Positions 3,182 through 14,576 of a DNA stretch of 64,000 nt are shown in pieces (positions within the stretch are counted from its first letter, which is position 1; each line of letters opens with the position of its first letter). The stretch is from a bacterium (lineage in GTDB: Bacteria; Patescibacteriota; Minisyncoccia; Phycocordibacterales; UBA2100), in the NCBI GenBank assembly GCA_038128225.1, contig JAYPJF010000002.1, positions 39,451-103,450 of the forward strand, given 5' to 3'. Below the pieces are notes generated by a model. It was not told the origin of the DNA. It made no database searches and saw only the letters and a list, made by a program, of their open reading frames with translations. The position numbers and the translations under genes were made by a program.

Positions 3182-4048
3182 TCATTTCATGCGAACCACC
3201 CCGAGTTCTTCAGCGATGAGTCCTTTGATTTCCATCATGGAAAGGAGCGCGTTTGCCTCTGCTGCTTGTTTCTGAAGCGTTTTGATTAATACGTCACGCT
3301 CGGTAGGCTGGCCTCCAAGAATATCGAGCACCATGCGCTCATCTGGGGTGAGACTACTCCAGTCAATCGAGTGATTTTTCGCTTCGTGTTCAAACCCGAG
3401 TGTATCGAGAATGTCCTGGGGTGAGGTAACTAGCGTTGCGCCGAGCTTTAGAAATTGATGCGCGCCTTTGGAGGCGGCGCTAAAAATCGACCCGGGCACC
3501 ACCAAAAGCTCTCGATTGTAGTCACTCGCTAATCGCGCAGTAATGAGCGTGCCTGATCGTTCTTCTGCCTCAATCACAAGCACGGCGTGACTCAGGCCAA
3601 CCATGACCCGATTACGTTGCGGAAAAGTCCAGGGAGCTGCGCGTAACTTCGGTTCGAATTCAGAAACAAGTGCGCCTCCGCGGTCGAGTATTGTACGCGC
3701 AAGGTTTACATTCGTGCGTGGATATAAAACATCCCAGTCAAGCCCCGAGCCAGGCACGGCTACACAGGTAAGATCGGCATGCAAAGCTGCCTTATGTGCA
3801 CACGCATCAATACCAAGCGCCAGCCCCGAGACAATAACGATGGGAAAACCTCGCAGACCCTCAATGAGATGTTCACATACTTGCTTGCCGTACGGTGTGT
3901 ACTTGCGAGATCCAACCACGGCAAGCCAACGCGCCTCAGTGCTTTGAGGTAATGAACCGCGGATCCATAACTGCTCCGGAGGTTTTGGAATCTCGTGCAG
4001 TAAAGGTGGAAAAGCACTTTTTGGGCAGCGGGTGATTTCATCGCTCAT
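3182..4048 (-). CDS. dprA: DNA processing protein DprA (Smf)
   Basis: 288-aa ORF with a Rossmann-like DprA core (VVGSRKYTPYGKQV..., SGLALGIDACAHKAAL) and a C-terminal winged-helix-like tail. Confidence 0.85.
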   Translation of the reverse strand: MSDEITRCPKSAFPPLLHEIPKPPEQLWIRGSLPQSTEARWLAVVGSRKYTPYGKQVCEHLIEGLRGFPIVIVSGLALGIDACAHKAALHADLTCVAVPGSGLDWDVLYPRTNVNLARTILDRGGALVSEFEPKLRAAPWTFPQRNRVMVGLSHAVLVIEAEERSGTLITARLASDYNRELLVVPGSIFSAASKGAHQFLKLGATLVTSPQDILDTLGFEHEAKNHSIDWSSLTPDERMVLDILGGQPTERDVLIKTLQKQAAEANALLSMMEIKGLIAEELGVVRMK

Positions 4049-4195
4049 ACTGCAAGCCTAACACCTGGGTGCGCCAGTATAGTATTAGTTTTTCTTTTCT
4101 GGTGGTACAAGTCCAATTCACAACTGAAAAGAAGAACCTCGCGCGCTTGTGTGTAGCGCATTGCGAAGCGGCAAGATGCGTATACAATCACGTCT

Positions 4196-5467
4196 ATGCT
4201 CGATATTAAATTCATACGCGAAAATAAAGAACTCATAGCGGCTGGCGCACAAAAGAAACGCATGCAAGTCGATCTTGATCGCTTAGTCGCTGTTGACGAC
4301 CAGCGGAAAGAATTGCAGGCTCGCATTGACGAAAAACGGGCACAACAAAATGAAGCGAGTACGCGTGTGGCGAGCGCAAAGGACGATGCAACAAAACAGG
4401 CGATCATTGCTGACATGCAGCGCATTAAGGATGCGCTTAAGAGTGAAGAAGAAGAGCTGAAACCGATTATGGAAGAGTGGCGCGCCTTAATGGTGCGTGT
4501 TCCTAATATTCCCGACATGTCCGTACCGGAAGGAGATAGTGATGCTGACAACCAAGAAGTGAAAGCGTGGGGCGAAAAAACGAAATTTTCATTCACACCT
4601 AAAAGTCACATCGAGCTTATGACCGCGCTCGATATGGTGGACCTTGACCGTGGTGCAAAAGTTTCCGGATTTCGTGGGTACTTTCTCAAAAACGACGGAG
4701 CGATACTGAGCTGGGCGATCTGGCGCTATGCGCAGGATTTCTTTTTGAAAAAACAATTCACTCCCATGATCGTTCCTTCACTGGTGCGCAAGGAATCATT
4801 CTTTGGGACTGGATATTTGCCACAAGGAGAGGAGGATTTGTATAAAACACAAGACGGTGAATATCTAGCCGGTACCGCGGAGGTGGCGACCATGGGCTAC
4901 TACATGGACGAAGTTGTCGATGCCGCGGCGTTGCCCATAAAATTTATTTCGTTTTCTCCATGTTTTCGCCGGGAGGCAGGAGCGCACAGTAAAGATGTAA
5001 AAGGATTGATTCGCGTGCACGAATTCTACAAATGGGAGCAAGTCGTTTTGTGTGAGGCGAGCCACGAAGAGTCGGTGCGCTGGCATGAGTGGATTAACCG
5101 CAACACTGAAGAGTTCATTGAGTCGCTCGGCATTCCGTATCATACGGTAGCAAACTGCGGTGGTGATTTGGGACAAGGCCAGGTAAAAAAATACGATATT
5201 GAATTGTGGGTACCTGGGGAAGAAAAGTATCGAGAAATCAGCTCCGCGTCGTATTTTCATGATTTCCAAACGCGTCGTCTTAATATTCGCTACAAAGACA
5301 AAGAAGGCAAGATGCGTTTTGTACACTCATTGAACTCAACTGCTGTACCAACGCCTCGCGTGCTTGTCTCTTTGGTAGAAAACTTTCAGCAGGCGGATGG
5401 CTCGATTATGATTCCGGAAGTGCTCCGGCCATACGTTGGGAAAGATGCCATCACATCGAAGTCATAA
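4196..5467 (+). CDS. serS: Seryl-tRNA synthetase
   Basis: 423-aa ORF with an N-terminal coiled-coil arm (MLDIKFIREN...) and class-II aaRS core motifs (FRREAGAHSKD, GGDLGQGQVKKYDIELWVP). Confidence 0.95.
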   Translation: MLDIKFIRENKELIAAGAQKKRMQVDLDRLVAVDDQRKELQARIDEKRAQQNEASTRVASAKDDATKQAIIADMQRIKDALKSEEEELKPIMEEWRALMVRVPNIPDMSVPEGDSDADNQEVKAWGEKTKFSFTPKSHIELMTALDMVDLDRGAKVSGFRGYFLKNDGAILSWAIWRYAQDFFLKKQFTPMIVPSLVRKESFFGTGYLPQGEEDLYKTQDGEYLAGTAEVATMGYYMDEVVDAAALPIKFISFSPCFRREAGAHSKDVKGLIRVHEFYKWEQVVLCEASHEESVRWHEWINRNTEEFIESLGIPYHTVANCGGDLGQGQVKKYDIELWVPGEEKYREISSASYFHDFQTRRLNIRYKDKEGKMRFVHSLNSTAVPTPRVLVSLVENFQQADGSIMIPEVLRPYVGKDAITSKS

Positions 5468-6362: not shown

Positions 6363-6668
6363 TCATGGTGTTCCCGCTTCTGCGTCTGACGCCACTTCCA
6401 CGAGGGCGAACTTGGTGAGAAAGGCTGAACCCGCATCGGGGCTCAAGAGAACCAGGAGCCGCAGCGCGTTCGTGTGAACTGGCTCTGCGGATTTTGCTGT
6501 TGCAAGAACCAGCGCTTCTGCAAGAAGCACGTGCCTCTCGAGTGTTCTCGGGTTGGCTAGCAACTTCTCCACAAGTGCATCCAACTCATTCTCGAGAACT
6601 CCACGTGAATGCGGCGCGGCGTTTTGGCCGGCAAAAAACCCTACGAATCCTTGCAGACTCATGCCCAT
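6363..6668 (-). CDS. Hypothetical 101-aa protein
   Basis: AGGAGG RBS 6 nt upstream of the ATG (minus strand, 6675-6680). Alpha-helical, Leu/Ala-rich translation. Flanked by terminator hairpins. Confidence 0.45.
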   Translation of the reverse strand: MGMSLQGFVGFFAGQNAAPHSRGVLENELDALVEKLLANPRTLERHVLLAEALVLATAKSAEPVHTNALRLLVLLSPDAGSAFLTKFALVEVASDAEAGTP

Positions 6669-10595: not shown

Positions 10596-11087
10596 TCAAA
10601 TTCCGAAATACGCATCGAGCATTGTGAGAGTTTCTTCGATGCCCTCGTCGAGTGTATCGAAGATTGGTGCGTCGGGGTACCGCATGCGAAGCAGTCTCTT
10701 GATTGCTTCAGCGGCTTTGAGTGCATGACCACTGAGTTCGGTGGTGTCGATGACGATAACTGTTTTCCCCGGATGCTGCGCGAGCGTGATCGCTGCCTCA
10801 ACATACGAGTACGATGAATCCTCGTTTCCACCCTGTTTTGGGTCACCGATGTAGAACACATAGTGCGTTGCGTGCTCCTTTGCTTTATTTTCCTCAATCT
10901 CACGTTCCGCACCCCATTGACCAGGATTTACCTGTGGATTAAAAAAGTAACTAGAAAGTATGCCAGCCTCGGTCATCTCATCGAGAAACAGCAAGCGCCA
11001 GTAGTTGTTCCCGCACGTTCCTGCGAGGAAAACGAGCGGTTCTTTCCTCTTGCGACCGAAAAGTCCCTTCAGCATTGTGATCTCCAT
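10596..11087 (-). CDS. Nucleoside 2-deoxyribosyltransferase-like (flavodoxin-fold) protein
   Basis: 163-aa ORF. LVFLAGTCGNNYW...YFFNPQ pattern and length are typical of the Nuc_deoxyribosyltransferase-like/DUF4406 fold. Family-level assignment only. Confidence 0.4.
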   Translation of the reverse strand: MEITMLKGLFGRKRKEPLVFLAGTCGNNYWRLLFLDEMTEAGILSSYFFNPQVNPGQWGAEREIEENKAKEHATHYVFYIGDPKQGGNEDSSYSYVEAAITLAQHPGKTVIVIDTTELSGHALKAAEAIKRLLRMRYPDAPIFDTLDEGIEETLTMLDAYFGI

Positions 11088-11126: not shown

Positions 11127-11154
11127 TTGTCAAAGTTCGATAAATCTGTATACT
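11127..11154 (+). promoter_or_regulatory. Sigma70-like promoter for tRNA-Gln
   Basis: TTGTCA -16 nt- TATACT, ending 8 nt before the tRNA 5' end. Confidence 0.5.
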
Positions 11155-11162
11155 GGGCCCAT

Positions 11163-11236
11163 TGCCGGATCGTCTAATGGTAGGACAGCAGCCTTTGAAG
11201 CTGTTTATCTTGGTTCGAATCCAAGTCCGGCAGCCA
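11163..11236 (+). tRNA. tRNA-Gln (anticodon UUG), CCA encoded
   Basis: Manual cloverleaf: acceptor TGCCGGA/TCCGGCA, D-arm GTCT-AATGGTA-GGAC, anticodon stem GCAGC/GCTGT with loop CTTTGAA (U33, UUG, A37), T-arm CTTGG-TTCGAAT-CCAAG, discriminator G, CCA. Confidence 0.85.
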
Positions 11237-11266
11237 GTTTGAGATAGGTTCGGACTCCGAGGAGCA
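11231..11266 (+). repeat. 36-bp direct repeat copy 1 (att-like), overlapping the tRNA-Gln 3' end
   Basis: CAGCCAGTTTGAGATAGGTTCGGACTCCGAGGAGCA. Matches 12631-12666 except for one C/T difference (35/36). Confidence 0.75.
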
Positions 11267-11301
11267 TCCTATTTATATAGTTTTTAAAAAGTAATAAAAT
11301 T

Positions 11302-11490
11302 ATGGATATGCAAAATTTATCATGGATATTTGATGGAATTGGCACAGCGGGAGTAACTTTCGTACTCGGCTTACTGGTCGGTGGTACTGCTGGTTATAAA
11401 ATTGCGATCAGGAAAACTATAAAACAAAAGCAAAAAGCTGGCGATAATTCTAGTCAGTTCCAGATCGGTGAGATTAAAAATGACCGATAA
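11302..11490 (+). CDS. 62-aa single-TM peptide, probably the detached N-terminus of the downstream gene
   Basis: MDMQNLSWIFDGIGTAGVTFVLGLLVGGTAGYKIAIRK... has a TM helix. The C-terminal KQKQKAGDNSSQFQIGE duplicates the N-terminal motif KQTQKAGDNSQLIQAG of the next ORF. Confidence 0.4.
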   Translation: MDMQNLSWIFDGIGTAGVTFVLGLLVGGTAGYKIAIRKTIKQKQKAGDNSSQFQIGEIKNDR

Positions 11491-11539
11491 ACAGACACAA
11501 AAAGCTGGCGACAATTCTCAACTTATCCAAGCAGGGACT
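11421..11539 (+). repeat. Diverged tandem duplication (about 51 bp units, 67-bp period) spanning the junction of the two cassette-1 ORFs
   Basis: The core CAAAAAGCTGGCGA(T/C)AATTCT occurs at 11431-11451 and 11498-11518. The 67-bp offset is not a multiple of 3, so the reading frame changes by +1. Confidence 0.7.
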
Positions 11540-12535
11540 GTTATTGTTGGTATTGATGAAAAAAGAGCACGCGAAATTGTTGATGAGAAATTAAATTCGG
11601 TCTTAAAGAGTTTTACGGCAGAAGCAACGGAAGAAGCAAATAAACGAAATAGGCTTTTCGAAGACTCACTCATTCCAAGAATGATTAAAGAAAATGCTCT
11701 GTCGGCTTTTTCAGACCCTTCATTTCAAATGCTACTTATTGAAGCACAAAAAAGAGCAGCTTCAACCGAAAGAAAAGAGGATTATGATTTACTTTCAGAA
11801 TTGATGGTTCATCGTTTTGAAAAAGGTTCTAATAGGACTATTAGGGCAGGTATTTCCAGAGCAGTTGAGATTGTGGATCAAATCTCAGATGAAGCACTGC
11901 TTGCAATAACTGTCTTTCATTCGGTTGCACAGTTTGTACCTGTTACAGGTAATATGTCAGATGGCTTACAGGTCTTAGATGGTTTATTTAGTAAGGTTAT
12001 TTATGGCACTTTACCCACAAATGATAGTTGGCTTGATCATCTAGATATTCTAGATGCTATAAGAGTAACTACCTTTGGAAGTACTAAGTTATTGGAAGAC
12101 TATTGGTATGAACAATTTGATGGATATGTAAAAAATGGAATTGAAGAAAATCACGAAAAACATACCGAAGCAAAAGAGTTGCTAGTAAAAGCTCGTCTCG
12201 ACCAAAACTCTTTGGTGAAAAATCCATTTAATGAAAAATATGTAAAACTTTTAGTATTAAACAAACGCCGAATACCAAAGCTTACTTTTGTAAGTGGTCA
12301 CTCGATCACTGATGATGAAAAAGATGCTCTTGAAAAGATATACGACTTATATGATGGCACTTCAATGTCTAAAGAAGATTTTATTAAAGAAATAGAAAAA
12401 TACCCTAATCTTAAAAAACTTCGGGAATGGTGGAATAAGTTGAACAAACAATCAATTCAAATTACCTCTGTTGGTAGAGTCTTGGCTCATTCTAACGCTC
12501 AACGAGTCGATAAAACTCTACCGCCGCTCGATTAA
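11480..12535 (+). CDS. Hypothetical 352-aa protein (alternative GTG start at 11468); possibly an LPO_1073/Vpar_1526-like family member, low confidence
   Basis: Long ORF in low-GC DNA. N-terminal QKAGDNSQLIQAGTVIVG motif and C-terminal IQITSVGRVLAHSNAQ motif. I vaguely recall similar end motifs from an uncharacterised family seen in mobile or defence contexts, but cannot confirm this without a search. Confidence 0.55.
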   Translation: MTDKQTQKAGDNSQLIQAGTVIVGIDEKRAREIVDEKLNSVLKSFTAEATEEANKRNRLFEDSLIPRMIKENALSAFSDPSFQMLLIEAQKRAASTERKEDYDLLSELMVHRFEKGSNRTIRAGISRAVEIVDQISDEALLAITVFHSVAQFVPVTGNMSDGLQVLDGLFSKVIYGTLPTNDSWLDHLDILDAIRVTTFGSTKLLEDYWYEQFDGYVKNGIEENHEKHTEAKELLVKARLDQNSLVKNPFNEKYVKLLVLNKRRIPKLTFVSGHSITDDEKDALEKIYDLYDGTSMSKEDFIKEIEKYPNLKKLREWWNKLNKQSIQITSVGRVLAHSNAQRVDKTLPPLD

Positions 12536-12543
12536 AAATTGTT

Positions 12544-12607
12544 ATTCCGAGGAGCGTCGAAATGGTAGACTAAAAAGCGTCAGGAAAGCCTTGTAGGGCT
12601 TGATGGG
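12544..12607 (+). repeat. 63-bp element-associated repeat, copy A
   Basis: ATTCCGAGGAGCGTCGAAATGGTAGACTAAAAAGCGTCAGGAAAGCCTTGTAGGGCTTGATGG. Repeated at 12958-13020 with about 90% identity. Confidence 0.7.
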
Positions 12608-12630
12608 TAAATTTACGAGACCGAAGAGAC

Positions 12631-12666
12631 CAGCCAGTTTGAGATAGGTTCGGATTCCGAGGAGCA
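12631..12666 (+). repeat. 36-bp direct repeat copy 2 (att-like), preceded by a degenerate copy of the tRNA 3' acceptor/T-arm
   Basis: CAGCCAGTTTGAGATAGGTTCGGATTCCGAGGAGCA. The upstream CCGAAGAGACCAGCCA resembles the tRNA sequence CCAAGTCCGGCAGCCA. Confidence 0.75.
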
Positions 12667-12711
12667 GAGGAAAAGTGATATATTGCGGCCACTTTTGTTT
12701 ATATTCTACCT

Positions 12712-12930
12712 ATGAGTAAATATGATCCACTGTGGAAGTTCATTCGAAGGAAAGGCAGCCCATCACTCACGCTGACGTTCGACGAAATACATAAGATTGC
12801 AGGAGTCAAATTGGATCATTCGTTTCTGAACTACAAAAAGGAGTTGCTTGAATATGGGTATCAAGTCGGGAAGATTTCTTTGAAAAAACATACAGTACTA
12901 TTCTCTGTGGCAAAGAAGCAAAGAAAATAA
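12712..12930 (+). CDS. Hypothetical 72-aa protein
   Basis: MSKYDPLWKFIRRKGSPSLTLTFDEIHKIAGVKLDHSFLNYKKELLEYGYQVGKISLKKHTVLFSV. A small alpha/beta protein that may be a standalone copy of a domain seen at N-termini of larger accessory proteins. Family not identified. Confidence 0.45.
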   Translation: MSKYDPLWKFIRRKGSPSLTLTFDEIHKIAGVKLDHSFLNYKKELLEYGYQVGKISLKKHTVLFSVAKKQRK

Positions 12931-12957
12931 TTGAGGGGTTAATGTCGCATTTTGATC

Positions 12958-13020
12958 ATTCCGAGGAGCGTCGAAATGGTAGACTAAAAAGCGTCAGAGA
13001 AACCTTGCGGGGCTTTATGG
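12958..13020 (+). repeat. 63-bp element-associated repeat, copy B
   Basis: ATTCCGAGGAGCGTCGAAATGGTAGACTAAAAAGCGTCAGAGAAACCTTGCGGGGCTTTATGG. Confidence 0.7.
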
Positions 13021-13112
13021 AGATTTATCCGAATCCGAAGAGGCCAGCTGGCTAAAAATCTAAGCGATGTGATCGTCTTGGGTGTTCAGTTACTCGAAGT
13101 AATGATAGGCGT

Positions 13113-14576
13113 ATGGGGAAAGAAGAAGCACTAATCCGATTCGAAGATGTTTCGTTTGAATACAGTTCTACAAAACCAATACTCCACGAGGTAAATTTTG
13201 CGGTACGCCGTGGCATGAAGTTGGCCATCATGGGCCAGAACGGCGCCGGAAAGAGCACCATCTTGTCTTTAATTACTGGCGAACACATGCCTGAGTCGGG
13301 ATCGATTCATACACAGTCGCACCTTTTGATAGCAACTGCAAAGCAAGTGATACCGCGCGATCAGTTAGACCTTACGGTCCGAGAGTTTTTTGAAAAATGC
13401 TTTGTCGAAAAAATATACAATATTGATCCGCGTATCAACGAAGTGTTAGACATCGTGCATCTGACAGCACCGCACGATCGCATTGTCCGGTCATTTTCGG
13501 GTGGCCAGCAGGCTCGACTTTTGCTTGCCTCGGCATTGATCCAAGACCCCGACCTTCTTCTGCTTGATGAGCCGACAAATAACCTCGATGCGGCCGGTGT
13601 CGAACATCTCACAAAGTTTCTCGTCGAGTACACCAAGACCGTCATAGTTATTTCGCACGATACGGAATTTTTGAACGCGTTTACGCACGGCGTGTTGTAT
13701 CTCGACGTTCACACGCGACAAGTGGAGCGGTATCCCGGCAATTACCACACGGTTCTCCGGCACATCGCTGCACGCATCGAAACAGAAAACCGCAAGAACG
13801 CTCAACTCGCTAAAGAGATCCAAGCAAACAAAGACAAAGCAAACTTTTTCGCACAGAAAGGTGGCAAGATGCGCTTGGTCGCAAAGAAAATGCGTACCAA
13901 GGCGGAGGAGATGGAAGAGGAAAAAGTGAATGTTAAAAAAGAAGATCGAACGATCCGTGCATTCACAATTCCGGTGCAGGAAGATCTACCAATCGAAATC
14001 GTCAGAATCAGCTCAGTGACAGTGATTAAGGACCACACTCCGAGGCATAAAAAAGTCGTGCTGCGACTGAAAAAAAACCAACACCTGCTCCTCAAAGGTC
14101 CGAACGGTATCGGGAAATCTACCTTGTTACAATCGATTGTCGATCGTACTGCGCGAGGCGTGACGGTGCCGGGTGAAGTGCGGGTCGGCTACTATCGTCA
14201 GGATTTTTCGACACTTGATTTCGAAATGACTGTTTTTGAATCACTCATGTCGGTACAGAAAGTCAAAAACGAAGAAGCGATGCGCGCAACTGCCGCAGGG
14301 CTCCTCCTTACTGCGGATATCATGCAGGCGAAAGTGGGAAACCTCTCGGAAGGTCAAAAAGGACTCTTGTCATTCGCGCGACTTATTATTGAACGTCCCG
14401 GCCTTCTTATTCTCGACGAACCAACCAACCATATCAATTTTCGCCACGTTCCTGTCATCGCGAAAGCACTCGATACTTATCAGGGTGCCTTGATTCTCGT
14501 CTCACACGTTCCAGAGTTTGTAGCACAGATTCGCATCGACGAAACTCTTGATTTGGGAAAGCTGGTGTCACAATGA
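13113..14576 (+). CDS. ABC-F family ATPase (two tandem ABC domains, no TMD), short form
   Basis: Two Walker A motifs (GQNGAGKST, GPNGIGKST), two ABC signature motifs (FSGGQQARL, LSEGQKGLL) and two Walker B motifs (LLLLDEPTN, LLILDEPTN), separated by a charged linker. Confidence 0.85.
   Translation: MGKEEALIRFEDVSFEYSSTKPILHEVNFAVRRGMKLAIMGQNGAGKSTILSLITGEHMPESGSIHTQSHLLIATAKQVIPRDQLDLTVREFFEKCFVEKIYNIDPRINEVLDIVHLTAPHDRIVRSFSGGQQARLLLASALIQDPDLLLLDEPTNNLDAAGVEHLTKFLVEYTKTVIVISHDTEFLNAFTHGVLYLDVHTRQVERYPGNYHTVLRHIAARIETENRKNAQLAKEIQANKDKANFFAQKGGKMRLVAKKMRTKAEEMEEEKVNVKKEDRTIRAFTIPVQEDLPIEIVRISSVTVIKDHTPRHKKVVLRLKKNQHLLLKGPNGIGKSTLLQSIVDRTARGVTVPGEVRVGYYRQDFSTLDFEMTVFESLMSVQKVKNEEAMRATAAGLLLTADIMQAKVGNLSEGQKGLLSFARLIIERPGLLILDEPTNHINFRHVPVIAKALDTYQGALILVSHVPEFVAQIRIDETLDLGKLVSQ

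Follow-up and report, generated by a model that had tools for sequence, protein, structure and literature searches.

Tandem accretion of islands that are flanked by attachment (att) sites and lack an integrase has been described at tRNA and tmRNA genes (PMC5704250, PMC3146451), and tRNA genes with att-flanked islets in tandem are, in general, well known. Here we analyse a locus of this appearance in a 64,000-nucleotide stretch of contig JAYPJF010000002.1, referred to below as the window. The locus lies between a gene for tRNA-Gln(UUG) and a gene for an ABC-F ATPase, where positions 11237-13050 would represent two mini-elements without an integrase, stacked in tandem at the 3' end of the tRNA gene. 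Each of them consists of a left module of ~30 nt (Y), which stands right after a ...CAGCCA end, of 0.3-1.3 kb of foreign DNA with a low GC content that holds one or two open reading frames (ORFs) on the tRNA strand, and of a right module of ~91 nt (X). We describe the anatomy of these units, their foreign composition, an allele that lacks exactly the first unit (cassette 1), and the reuse of the modules in other sources together with a core sequence that co-varies. The reading that we prefer, at a probability of roughly one half, is that the units are akin to cis-mobilizable elements (CIMEs): integrase-less mini-elements that accreted at the att site of the tRNA gene, with site-specific entry and a recombinase acting in trans.

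CIMEs of the Streptococcus ICESt1/ICESt3 family (PMC5704250) resemble these units in several ways. They are found at the 3' end of a tRNA gene, att-type direct repeats surround the islands, integration and transfer genes are lacking, the units stand in tandem with internal att copies and decayed outer sites, and their mobilisation is presumed to depend on an integrase in trans. On the other hand, CIMEs measure kilobases to tens of kilobases, whereas the units described here measure 0.4 and 1.4 kb. Furthermore, the repeat at our locus consists of the last 6 nt of the tRNA and a 30-nt trailer, each unit carries the ~91-nt module X with a second copy of the core, and the presumed host belongs to the Saccharibacteria in the candidate phyla radiation (CPR), with no cognate integrative and conjugative element (ICE), integrative and mobilizable element (IME) or integrase known. 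The Dehalococcoides ssrA islands (PMC3146451) are similar in that multiple low-GC islands stand in tandem downstream of one small-RNA gene, with a short direct repeat of the RNA 3' end (20 bp there) as their boundary; each repeat is closely preceded by a conserved motif that shows no alignment to the RNA gene itself. Some of these islands have no integration module and were proposed to be CIMEs (PMC3146451), but most carry a serine-recombinase module (DsiB/DsiA) and are far larger; at our locus and in the other copies of the units, no integration module is seen.

A different kind of likeness exists to integron cassettes and clusters of attC sites lacking integron-integrases (CALINs). These too are short single-gene units in one orientation with a conserved end site of ~60-140 bp, stacked at a fixed resident site, and their cargo is unrelated and mostly of unknown function. 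They differ in that X and Y have no attC-type palindrome or hairpin, that the module ends here are direct repeats, that there is no IntI, and that a tRNA gene serves as the anchor. Small genomic islands without an integrase that excise by site-specific recombination, with the recombinase acting in trans, are a further parallel. One example, the microcin H47 island of E. coli, which is said to be ~13 kb long, reportedly lacks integrase and excisionase genes; it comes from another host and has no tRNA-adjacent modular X/Y architecture. Islands like this one usually carry integrase and excisionase genes of their own, according to a passage in PMC3191183. What is distinctive for our locus is the miniature size, the travelling ~91-nt module X, the copy of the core at the start of X, and the CPR host. 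The features of the locus are the following (positions in the window).

10596 to 11087, minus strand: gene for a 163-aa nucleoside-deoxyribosyltransferase-like protein, a non-recombinase, in the left flank; divergent from the tRNA, with a weak Nuc_deoxyri_tr2 match
11127 to 11154, plus strand: sigma-70-like promoter match TTGTCA-16-TATACT directly 5' of the tRNA, a match to the consensus only (10/12 positions)
11163 to 11236, plus strand: tRNA-Gln(UUG) with encoded CCA (ARAGORN, Rfam), the anchor of the array and the attB-like target
11231 to 11266, plus strand: 36-nt block, copy 1, i.e. the last 6 nt of the tRNA (CAGCCA) and Y1 (C variant); the core TCCGAGGAGC closes the block at 11256-11265
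11237 to 11266, plus strand: left module Y1, GTTTGAGATAGGTTCGGACTCCGAGGAGCA
11237 to 12636, plus strand: cassette 1, made up of Y1, cargo 1 and X1, which behaves as a 1400-bp indel
11267 to 12543, plus strand: cargo of cassette 1, 35.0% GC, with a 62-aa and a 351-aa ORF
12544 to 12636, plus strand: right module X1, which opens with the core ATTCCGAGGAGC 8 nt past the stop codon of the cargo and has CCAGCCA at its end
12631 to 12666, plus strand: 36-nt block, copy 2, i.e. CAGCCA and Y2 (T variant); the core closes the block at 12656-12665
12637 to 12666, plus strand: left module Y2, identical to Y1 except for a single C/T change
12667 to 12957, plus strand: cargo of cassette 2, 38.1% GC, with one 72-aa ORF (12712-12930)
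12958 to 13050, plus strand: right module X2, which opens with the core ATTCCGAGGAGC and ends in ...CCGAAGAGGCCAGC followed by TGGC, i.e. CCAGC and then TGGC
13113 to 14576, plus strand: ABC-F ATPase gene, the conserved right flank outside the element, separated from X2 by 62 nt

The tRNA-Gln(UUG) at 11163-11236 (+) is the sole tRNA gene of the window (ARAGORN; Rfam RF00005, 64.9 bits), and the low-GC insert starts straight after it, that is, at the 3' end of an intact tRNA gene. The 36-nt repeat, CAGCCAGTTTGAGATAGGTTCGGAyTCCGAGGAGCA, is found at 11231-11266 and at 12631-12666 with 35 of 36 positions identical and a spacing of 1400 bp. A second repeat of 91 nt (12544-12634 and 12958-13048, spacing 414 bp) has 84% identity; its first 40 nt are identical, and past this shared head X1 and X2 are ~70% identical. 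The 10-mer TCCGAGGAGC has exact matches at 11256, 12546, 12656 and 12960 and no others in the 64 kb, such that it marks all four junctions, namely where each Y ends and where each X starts. Copies of the repeats outside 11231-13050 were not found in the window; for 30-mer and 32-mer repeat probes, the expected number of chance matches is zero. X1 and the second copy of the 36-nt block form an inter-cassette module of ~122 bp. Since no Y block comes after X2, we take X2 as the right edge of the island.

The composition changes at the same place. Cargo 1 has a GC content of 35.0% and cargo 2 one of 38.1%, compared with 49.6% for the window and 48-50% for the flanks, and the low-GC stretch has sharp bounds, from 11267 to ~13000. 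An earlier note on this DNA, made from the letters alone, had claimed the 36-nt repeat, the shared core at every junction and the AT-rich DNA between the repeats, and all three agree with our repeat search and base counts. Its element-side repeat is present twice as well, but with a length of 91 nt and a spacing of 414 bp in place of the claimed 63 bp and 413 bp. The repeats had also been called nested; what we find is two cassettes in tandem.

A distal direct repeat of the tRNA 3' end, which is expected of islands that target tRNA genes, is present for cassette 1 (36 nt). Cassette 1 has thus fully kept what would be attL and attR in the absence of integration or transfer genes; cassette 2 has done so only in part, as its attR is degenerate.

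Next, we turn to strain alleles. The Logan contig L001 (SRR23967303) differs from the window in 16 of 2429 nt and comes from a strain that is ~99.3% identical. It starts with 26 nt that are specific to the tRNA, continues with the T variant of the 36-nt block, and then has cargo 2, X2 and the ABC-F gene. In other words, the tRNA bases 11205-11236 are joined directly to Y (T variant), and the 1400-bp cassette 1 is missing precisely at the repeat, which makes this contig an empty site for cassette 1 of the kind that the earlier note had proposed to look for. Note that the repeat copies share at most 24 consecutive bases; with an assumed k of 31 for the Logan assembly, no single k-mer bridges the join, because the shared run is shorter than k. 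The T variant places the crossover within the first 24 nt of the block, CAGCCAGTTTGAGATAGGTTCGGA, for an insertion and a deletion alike. An allele without cassette 2 was not found among the contigs retrieved.

The allele with cassette 1 is confirmed by L002, which has no mismatches to the window and runs from the tRNA through Y1 and cargo 1 to the head of X1. Two further contigs, L004 and L005 (0-1 mismatches to the window), contain cargo 2, X2 and the ABC-F gene, and L005 comes from the same sample as L002. Samples that carry this allele are SRR26337528, DRR685533 and DRR404984. The breaks of the contigs fall exactly k-1 bases away from the repeats, with L003 and L005 beginning at 12968 (12998-30) and L002 ending at 12573 (12544+29).

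The modules were also found in other sources. The closest named homologues of the ABC-F protein are labelled Patescibacteria and, as far as can be judged from its sequence, the host is a Saccharibacteria (TM7) bacterium. A scan with the X head of 185,579 species, one genome each, gave one match, a Candidatus Saccharibacteria metagenome-assembled genome (L006), and a metagenome scan for X gave 4 matches, among which L009 alone is true. In L006, a gene for an S-adenosylmethionine (SAM) methyltransferase is followed directly by X3, a Y fragment and then housekeeping DNA at 51% GC. The order in L009 is cargo A, X5, Y, cargo B, X4, so that X and Y stand between two unrelated ORFs in DNA of ~34% GC; X4 is truncated. 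At the edge of this array, an accessory-looking ORF with a phosphoribosyltransferase domain (35-400, +) converges on the truncated X4.

A search for further arrays through homologues of the methyltransferase gave one informative case, L032. Here, tRNA-Gln(UUG)-CAGCCA-GTTTGAG is followed by a diverged Y, a methyltransferase that is 84% identical to its L006 counterpart, and a diverged X6, which is ~57% identical to the other X copies and colinear with them throughout. The junction sequences of L032 and of the window compare as follows.

End of Y: L032 GCTCGAGTCGCA, window TCCGAGGAGCA
Start of X: L032 GCTCAAGACGCG, window TCCGAGGAGCG
End of X: L032 GCTCAAGTCGGCCAG, window TCCGAAGAGGCCAGC

L032 is the most diverged of these sources, and its junction core has a lineage-specific sequence that differs from that of the window, yet its three positions resemble one another. 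Since the core co-varies in this way, the short direct repeat on either side of the cargo belongs to the architecture and is no coincidence. Homologues of the methyltransferase at 71-77% identity have ordinary, unrelated surroundings in which X, Y and tRNA-Gln(UUG) are all absent, so the methyltransferase gene was evidently captured into the cassette context. In summary, the layout of tRNA-Gln(UUG)/Y, cargo and X, or parts of it, recurs with other cargo in three further, TM7-like sources (L009, L006 and L032). Apart from X6, the X copies are 71-84% identical around wholly different cargo, with 79-80% between X1 and the copies X3 and X4 from other samples, and X starts 0-27 nt past the stop codon of the cargo in every case.

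How could such units arise? X opens with the 10-12-nt core that closes Y and ends in ...CCAGC(CA); in this way it rebuilds the CAGCCA/GTTTGAG... junction at the far end of the element, behind which the next element could land. Entry would take place by site-specific recombination at the 36-nt block or at the core, X and Y together would make up an att site borne by the element, and the gene for the recombinase might lie on a helper element or in another part of the genome. A precise circle of cassette 1 would join the end of X1 to Y1 and the start of cargo 1 and read ...GAGACCAGCCAGTTTGAGATAGGTTCGGACTCCGAGGAGCATCCTATT, and a site without cargo, with Y fused to X at the core, would read ...GGTTCGGATTCCGAGGAGCGTCGAAATGG. 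At present the elements may be CIME-like passengers, with the outer boundary of cassette 2 decayed. We favour site-specific entry because of the sharp boundaries of homology, the co-varying core repeat and the tRNA target.

Several observations weigh against this reading. To begin with, no recombinase was seen in the cassettes, the 64-kb window, the annotation of the flanks or the surroundings of X3 in L006, which is the scope of our search. The cassette ORFs (62, 351 and 72 aa) contain no integrase, transposase or recombinase domain; a recombinase is also absent among 20 mid-sized ORFs of the window (Pfam) and in the precomputed flank annotation, a screen of the window with motif regular expressions gave none, and neither did Pfam for nine ORFs beside X3 in L006. 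The statement of the earlier note that there is no integrase thus holds for all of these. Secondly, an intact right-hand copy of the 36-nt block is absent at cassette 2, the distal boundary of which keeps only the 12-nt core and a degenerate ...CCAGC. Thirdly, the 36-nt identity block takes in only 6 nt of the tRNA, and such an overlap is unusual among classical integrases that target tRNA genes. We did not see a convincing dyad-symmetric recombinase core in the repeat either, apart from the small palindrome TCGGA-y-TCCGA. Furthermore, X is known from six copies in four sources, so that generalisation is weak, and the contigs that were retrieved independently leave the X1-Y2 junction (12574-12693) uncovered. 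Finally, a homologous deletion between the two copies of the 36-nt repeat would account just as well for the single presence/absence allele of 1400 bp.

The last point leads to the main alternative, namely the homologous exchange of cassettes after natural transformation, with no dedicated recombinase, which we regard as possible but on the doubtful side. Here, tRNA-Gln/Y and X would serve as portable homology arms of ~100 bp, incoming DNA from related strains would swap or add cargo, and unequal or intramolecular recombination between the 36-nt repeats would yield the 1400-bp indel. This would fit the lack of a recombinase wherever we examined, and the T variant of L001 is what one expects if the crossover fell within the 24 nt at the start of the repeat. 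The identical first 40 nt of X1 and X2, with ~70% identity in the remainder, resemble the outcome of gene conversion. The window also contains a gene for DprA (3182-4048, -; Pfam E=9e-65), the presence of which is consistent with natural transformation in the host, and a passage in PMC10633639 reports natural competence for Saccharibacteria. Homologous exchange leaves unexplained, on the other hand, why a short direct repeat of the core stands on both sides of the cargo in every case, why this core co-varies in the diverged L032, and why the homology ends abruptly at the core. Moreover, repeats of 36 and 12 nt are short for RecA-dependent events, and the growth of a tandem array demands more than allelic replacement. 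As to the two consecutive site-specific integrations that the earlier note proposed, the part about two small foreign units with att-like repeats stands, whereas site-specific as opposed to homologous entry is a tentative reading.

An integron-like platform is another explanation, which we find unlikely. The 3' end of tRNA-Gln with Y would be equivalent to attI and the ~122-bp X+Y module to attC, with a putative recombinase that would insert and excise single-gene cassettes. In its full form, also unlikely when taken as a whole, it would be an undescribed integron-like capture platform in a lineage of Saccharibacteria, with a non-hairpin X+Y module of ~120 bp for each single-gene cassette. The tRNA-Gln(UUG) 3' end and Y would form a fixed landing site that X+Y regenerates, and a putative recombinase encoded elsewhere would shuttle cassettes between strains. 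There is some anatomical support for this: one or two ORFs per cassette in one orientation with a conserved module of ~90-120 bp 0-27 nt behind, arrays of at least two cassettes in two sources (the window and L009), cargo that is unrelated between cassettes, and the core repeat at both ends of each inter-cassette module. The structural hallmarks are missing, however. The folds of X, of X+Y and of their complements are no more stable than those of shuffled sequences (z-scores of -1.1 to +1.2 for DNA and RNA together, -0.28 to +1.22 for DNA), which also led us to reject a structured RNA or DNA element. RNAalifold on the six X copies gave -5.7 kcal/mol with an unfavourable covariation term and no conserved pairing, and identity with attC was rejected as inverted repeats, the R''/R' pair and a hairpin fold are all absent. 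Among the ORFs of the window that were tested there is neither an IntI-like gene nor a Phage_integrase match; the divergent gene, where an integrase of this kind would be looked for, encodes the nucleoside-deoxyribosyltransferase-like protein. In addition, public data contain extremely few copies of the modules, and no array is more than very short.

Quite improbable, in our view, is inert debris, i.e. that immobile units remained from larger prophages or ICEs once located at tRNA-Gln, or from local duplications of the tRNA region. The degenerate outer boundary of cassette 2, the truncated X4 in L009 and the mere Y fragment behind X3 in L006 do look like decay. Nucleotide searches (blastn) against phage and plasmid collections matched the tRNA alone, which is also in line with debris, and four pattern scans of viral contigs gave nothing or chance matches. 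Debris should not, however, conserve X at 71-84% across sources while the cargo is wholly different, nor should cassette 1 vary between 99.3%-identical strains; besides, X1 is as close to X3 and X4 (79-80%) as it is to X2 outside the 40-nt head (~70%). The idea that the assembly is a chimera of two strain alleles, one with tRNA and cassette 1 and one with tRNA and cassette 2, draws on the X1-Y2 junction having no independent contig and on short-read contigs breaking at repeats, but it is most improbable, given that the near-identical contigs L002, L004 and L005 carry both parts (L002 and L005 in the same sample), that the breakpoints (12968 and 12573) lie k-1 from the shared 40-mer as expected with both X copies in one genome, and that L009 independently has X-Y between two cargos.

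The interest of the CIME-like units is moderate and rests mainly on the host lineage and on the cassette-like modularity. Little is known about the mobile elements of Saccharibacteria and of CPR bacteria in general, and the tiny genomes of these organisms leave little accessory room. The gain or loss of a single gene next to a tRNA between near-identical strains gives a handle on gene exchange in these reduced epibionts. If a dedicated recombinase exists, this would be a new cassette system; if not, it would be a tidy example of homology-guided cassette exchange. The Saccharibacteria group has been transformable only since recently, and the short conserved modules would suit a neutral landing pad for genetic tools.

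We also analysed what the cassettes carry. The 62-aa ORF of cassette 1 (11302-11490, +) has a hydrophobic stretch suggestive of a membrane segment. The 351-aa ORF (11480-12535, +) belongs to the LPO_1073/Vpar_1526 family (NF045477; PF28206 in precomputed annotation), which is widespread (1119 representative clusters) and uncharacterised; a literature search with the family names gave nothing useful. The AlphaFold model of the 351-aa protein is mostly helical with a small beta region and has a predicted local distance difference test score (pLDDT) of 94, and a Foldseek comparison with the PDB gave no fold match with E<1. For the 72-aa protein of cassette 2, Pfam gave a sub-threshold match to DUF7662 alone, and no sequence match was found in the PDB. 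The cargo was expected to be of the defence or addiction kind in the earlier note. This was not supported, since PADLOC gave 0 matches on the cassette ORFs and no toxin-antitoxin model matched either; a known defence gene was found neither in the cassettes nor in the window. All in all, PHROGs, Pfam, NCBIfam and PADLOC recovered nothing but the uncharacterised family.

Within cargo 1 there is a 30-nt direct repeat (87%) at 11422-11451 and 11489-11518. Because of this repeat, one motif is encoded twice, at the C-terminal end of the 62-aa ORF (KQKQKAGDNSSQFQ) and at the N-terminal end of the 351-aa ORF (KQTQKAGDNSQLIQ); it is the conserved N-terminal QxQKAGDNSxQxQ of the LPO_1073/Vpar_1526 family. 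The repeat may represent a local duplication or the split of an N-terminally extended form. Weak promoter-like matches occur soon after Y in both cassettes, TTTATA-17-TAAAAT (11272-11300) and TTTATA-17-TATGAT (12698-12726), each with 9/12 consensus positions; promoter-like matches in this region are no more numerous than in shuffled sequences.

As for the nature of the modules themselves, Rfam gave no match beyond the tRNA, either for 3.1 kb at E<=5 or for a 561-nt slice at E<=10. A common intergenic repeat of the repetitive extragenic palindromic (REP) type, the reading that the earlier note had set against its own, or one of the miniature inverted-repeat transposable element (MITE) type was rejected: there are no dispersed copies in the window, no hairpin, and almost no matches in public collections. 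We also rejected an IS200/IS605-type element or a palindrome-associated transposable element (PATE), as the window ORFs tested have no Y1_Tnp, and Y and X have no hairpins. X as a coding sequence was considered as well. Its SEERRNGRLKSVR frame is open in all copies, but a start codon is absent in L006 and L009 and the frame has no fixed phase relative to the upstream ORF.

A tRNA origin of X is possible. X aligns colinearly with tRNA-Gln by way of GTCGAAATGGTAGAC, which resembles a D arm, of a CGAATCC motif and of the CAGC(CA) at its end, and against 2000 shuffles the local alignment gives p values from ~0.0005 (X3) to ~0.1 (X5). Of the decayed copy of the T-arm and acceptor that had been claimed, this weak alignment signal is what remains: outside the shared CAGCCA, the end of X matches the T-arm and acceptor at 10/16 positions. 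X was not recognised as a tRNA by the Rfam tRNA model (E<=10) or by ARAGORN at the 80% threshold, and an nhmmer search with an X profile found no tRNA-Gln. At the 60% threshold ARAGORN gave inconsistent noise, its intron mode likewise gave nothing consistent, and in reconstructed "empty" Y+X units it found no tRNA.

The interval between tRNA-Gln and ABC-F differs in relatives, and together with the L001 allele this bears out the proposal of a strain-variable insertion hotspot at the tRNA-Gln 3' end. Relatives with an 80-86% identical ABC-F gene have other DNA 5' of it. Four of them (L011-L014) have ~1 kb of normal-GC DNA with small ORFs after tRNA-Gln(CUG), and two (L018 and L020) have a 6.5-kb stretch with surface-protein, oxidase and two-component genes after tRNA-Gln(CUG). 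Three others (L015-L017) have a REP-associated tyrosine transposase (RAYT) with its REPs, a homologue of the Shedu protein SduA and further ORFs, with no tRNA within 7 kb. Neither X nor Y was found in these ABC-F relatives.

In L015 (JGI Ga0163153_10000005), with an 83%-identical ABC-F gene, the stretch with the RAYT-like Y1_Tnp and the Shedu SduA_C domain lies at 2130-2910 and 3774-5210, and it also holds unannotated ORFs beside a giant RHS-repeat protein. Next to the Y1_Tnp, on its two sides, there are an inverted arm of 19 nt and three REP-like units of 27 nt in tandem; the Y1_Tnp is a RAYT with its own 27-nt REPs, unrelated to X and Y. In L018, a 53-nt direct repeat (77%) at 2310-2362 and 6516-6568 brackets ~4.2 kb just upstream of the ABC-F orthologue, with a DAO oxidase, a histidine kinase and a response regulator; the two copies might be a further att-like pair at this hotspot. 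A 63-nt period recurs ~12 times in the kinase gene, and a run of N breaks a tandem repeat of 12 nt.

On the left side of the window locus, the 163-aa gene (10596-11087, -) is essentially an orphan. Among 5.8 billion proteins it has one matching cluster (100% identity over 98% of the query), which is a call of the same gene with a shorter start, and nothing else at E<=1e-10. Finally, the tRNA-Gln genes themselves fall into two isoacceptors: L011-L014, L018, L020 and L030 have tRNA-Gln(CUG) without an encoded CCA, whereas in the window and in L032 the gene is tRNA-Gln(UUG) and the CCA is encoded. Between the two, identity is ~91-96% over the 5' ~24 nt (acceptor and D arm) and the 3' ~27 nt (T arm and acceptor), and they differ in the anticodon arm alone.

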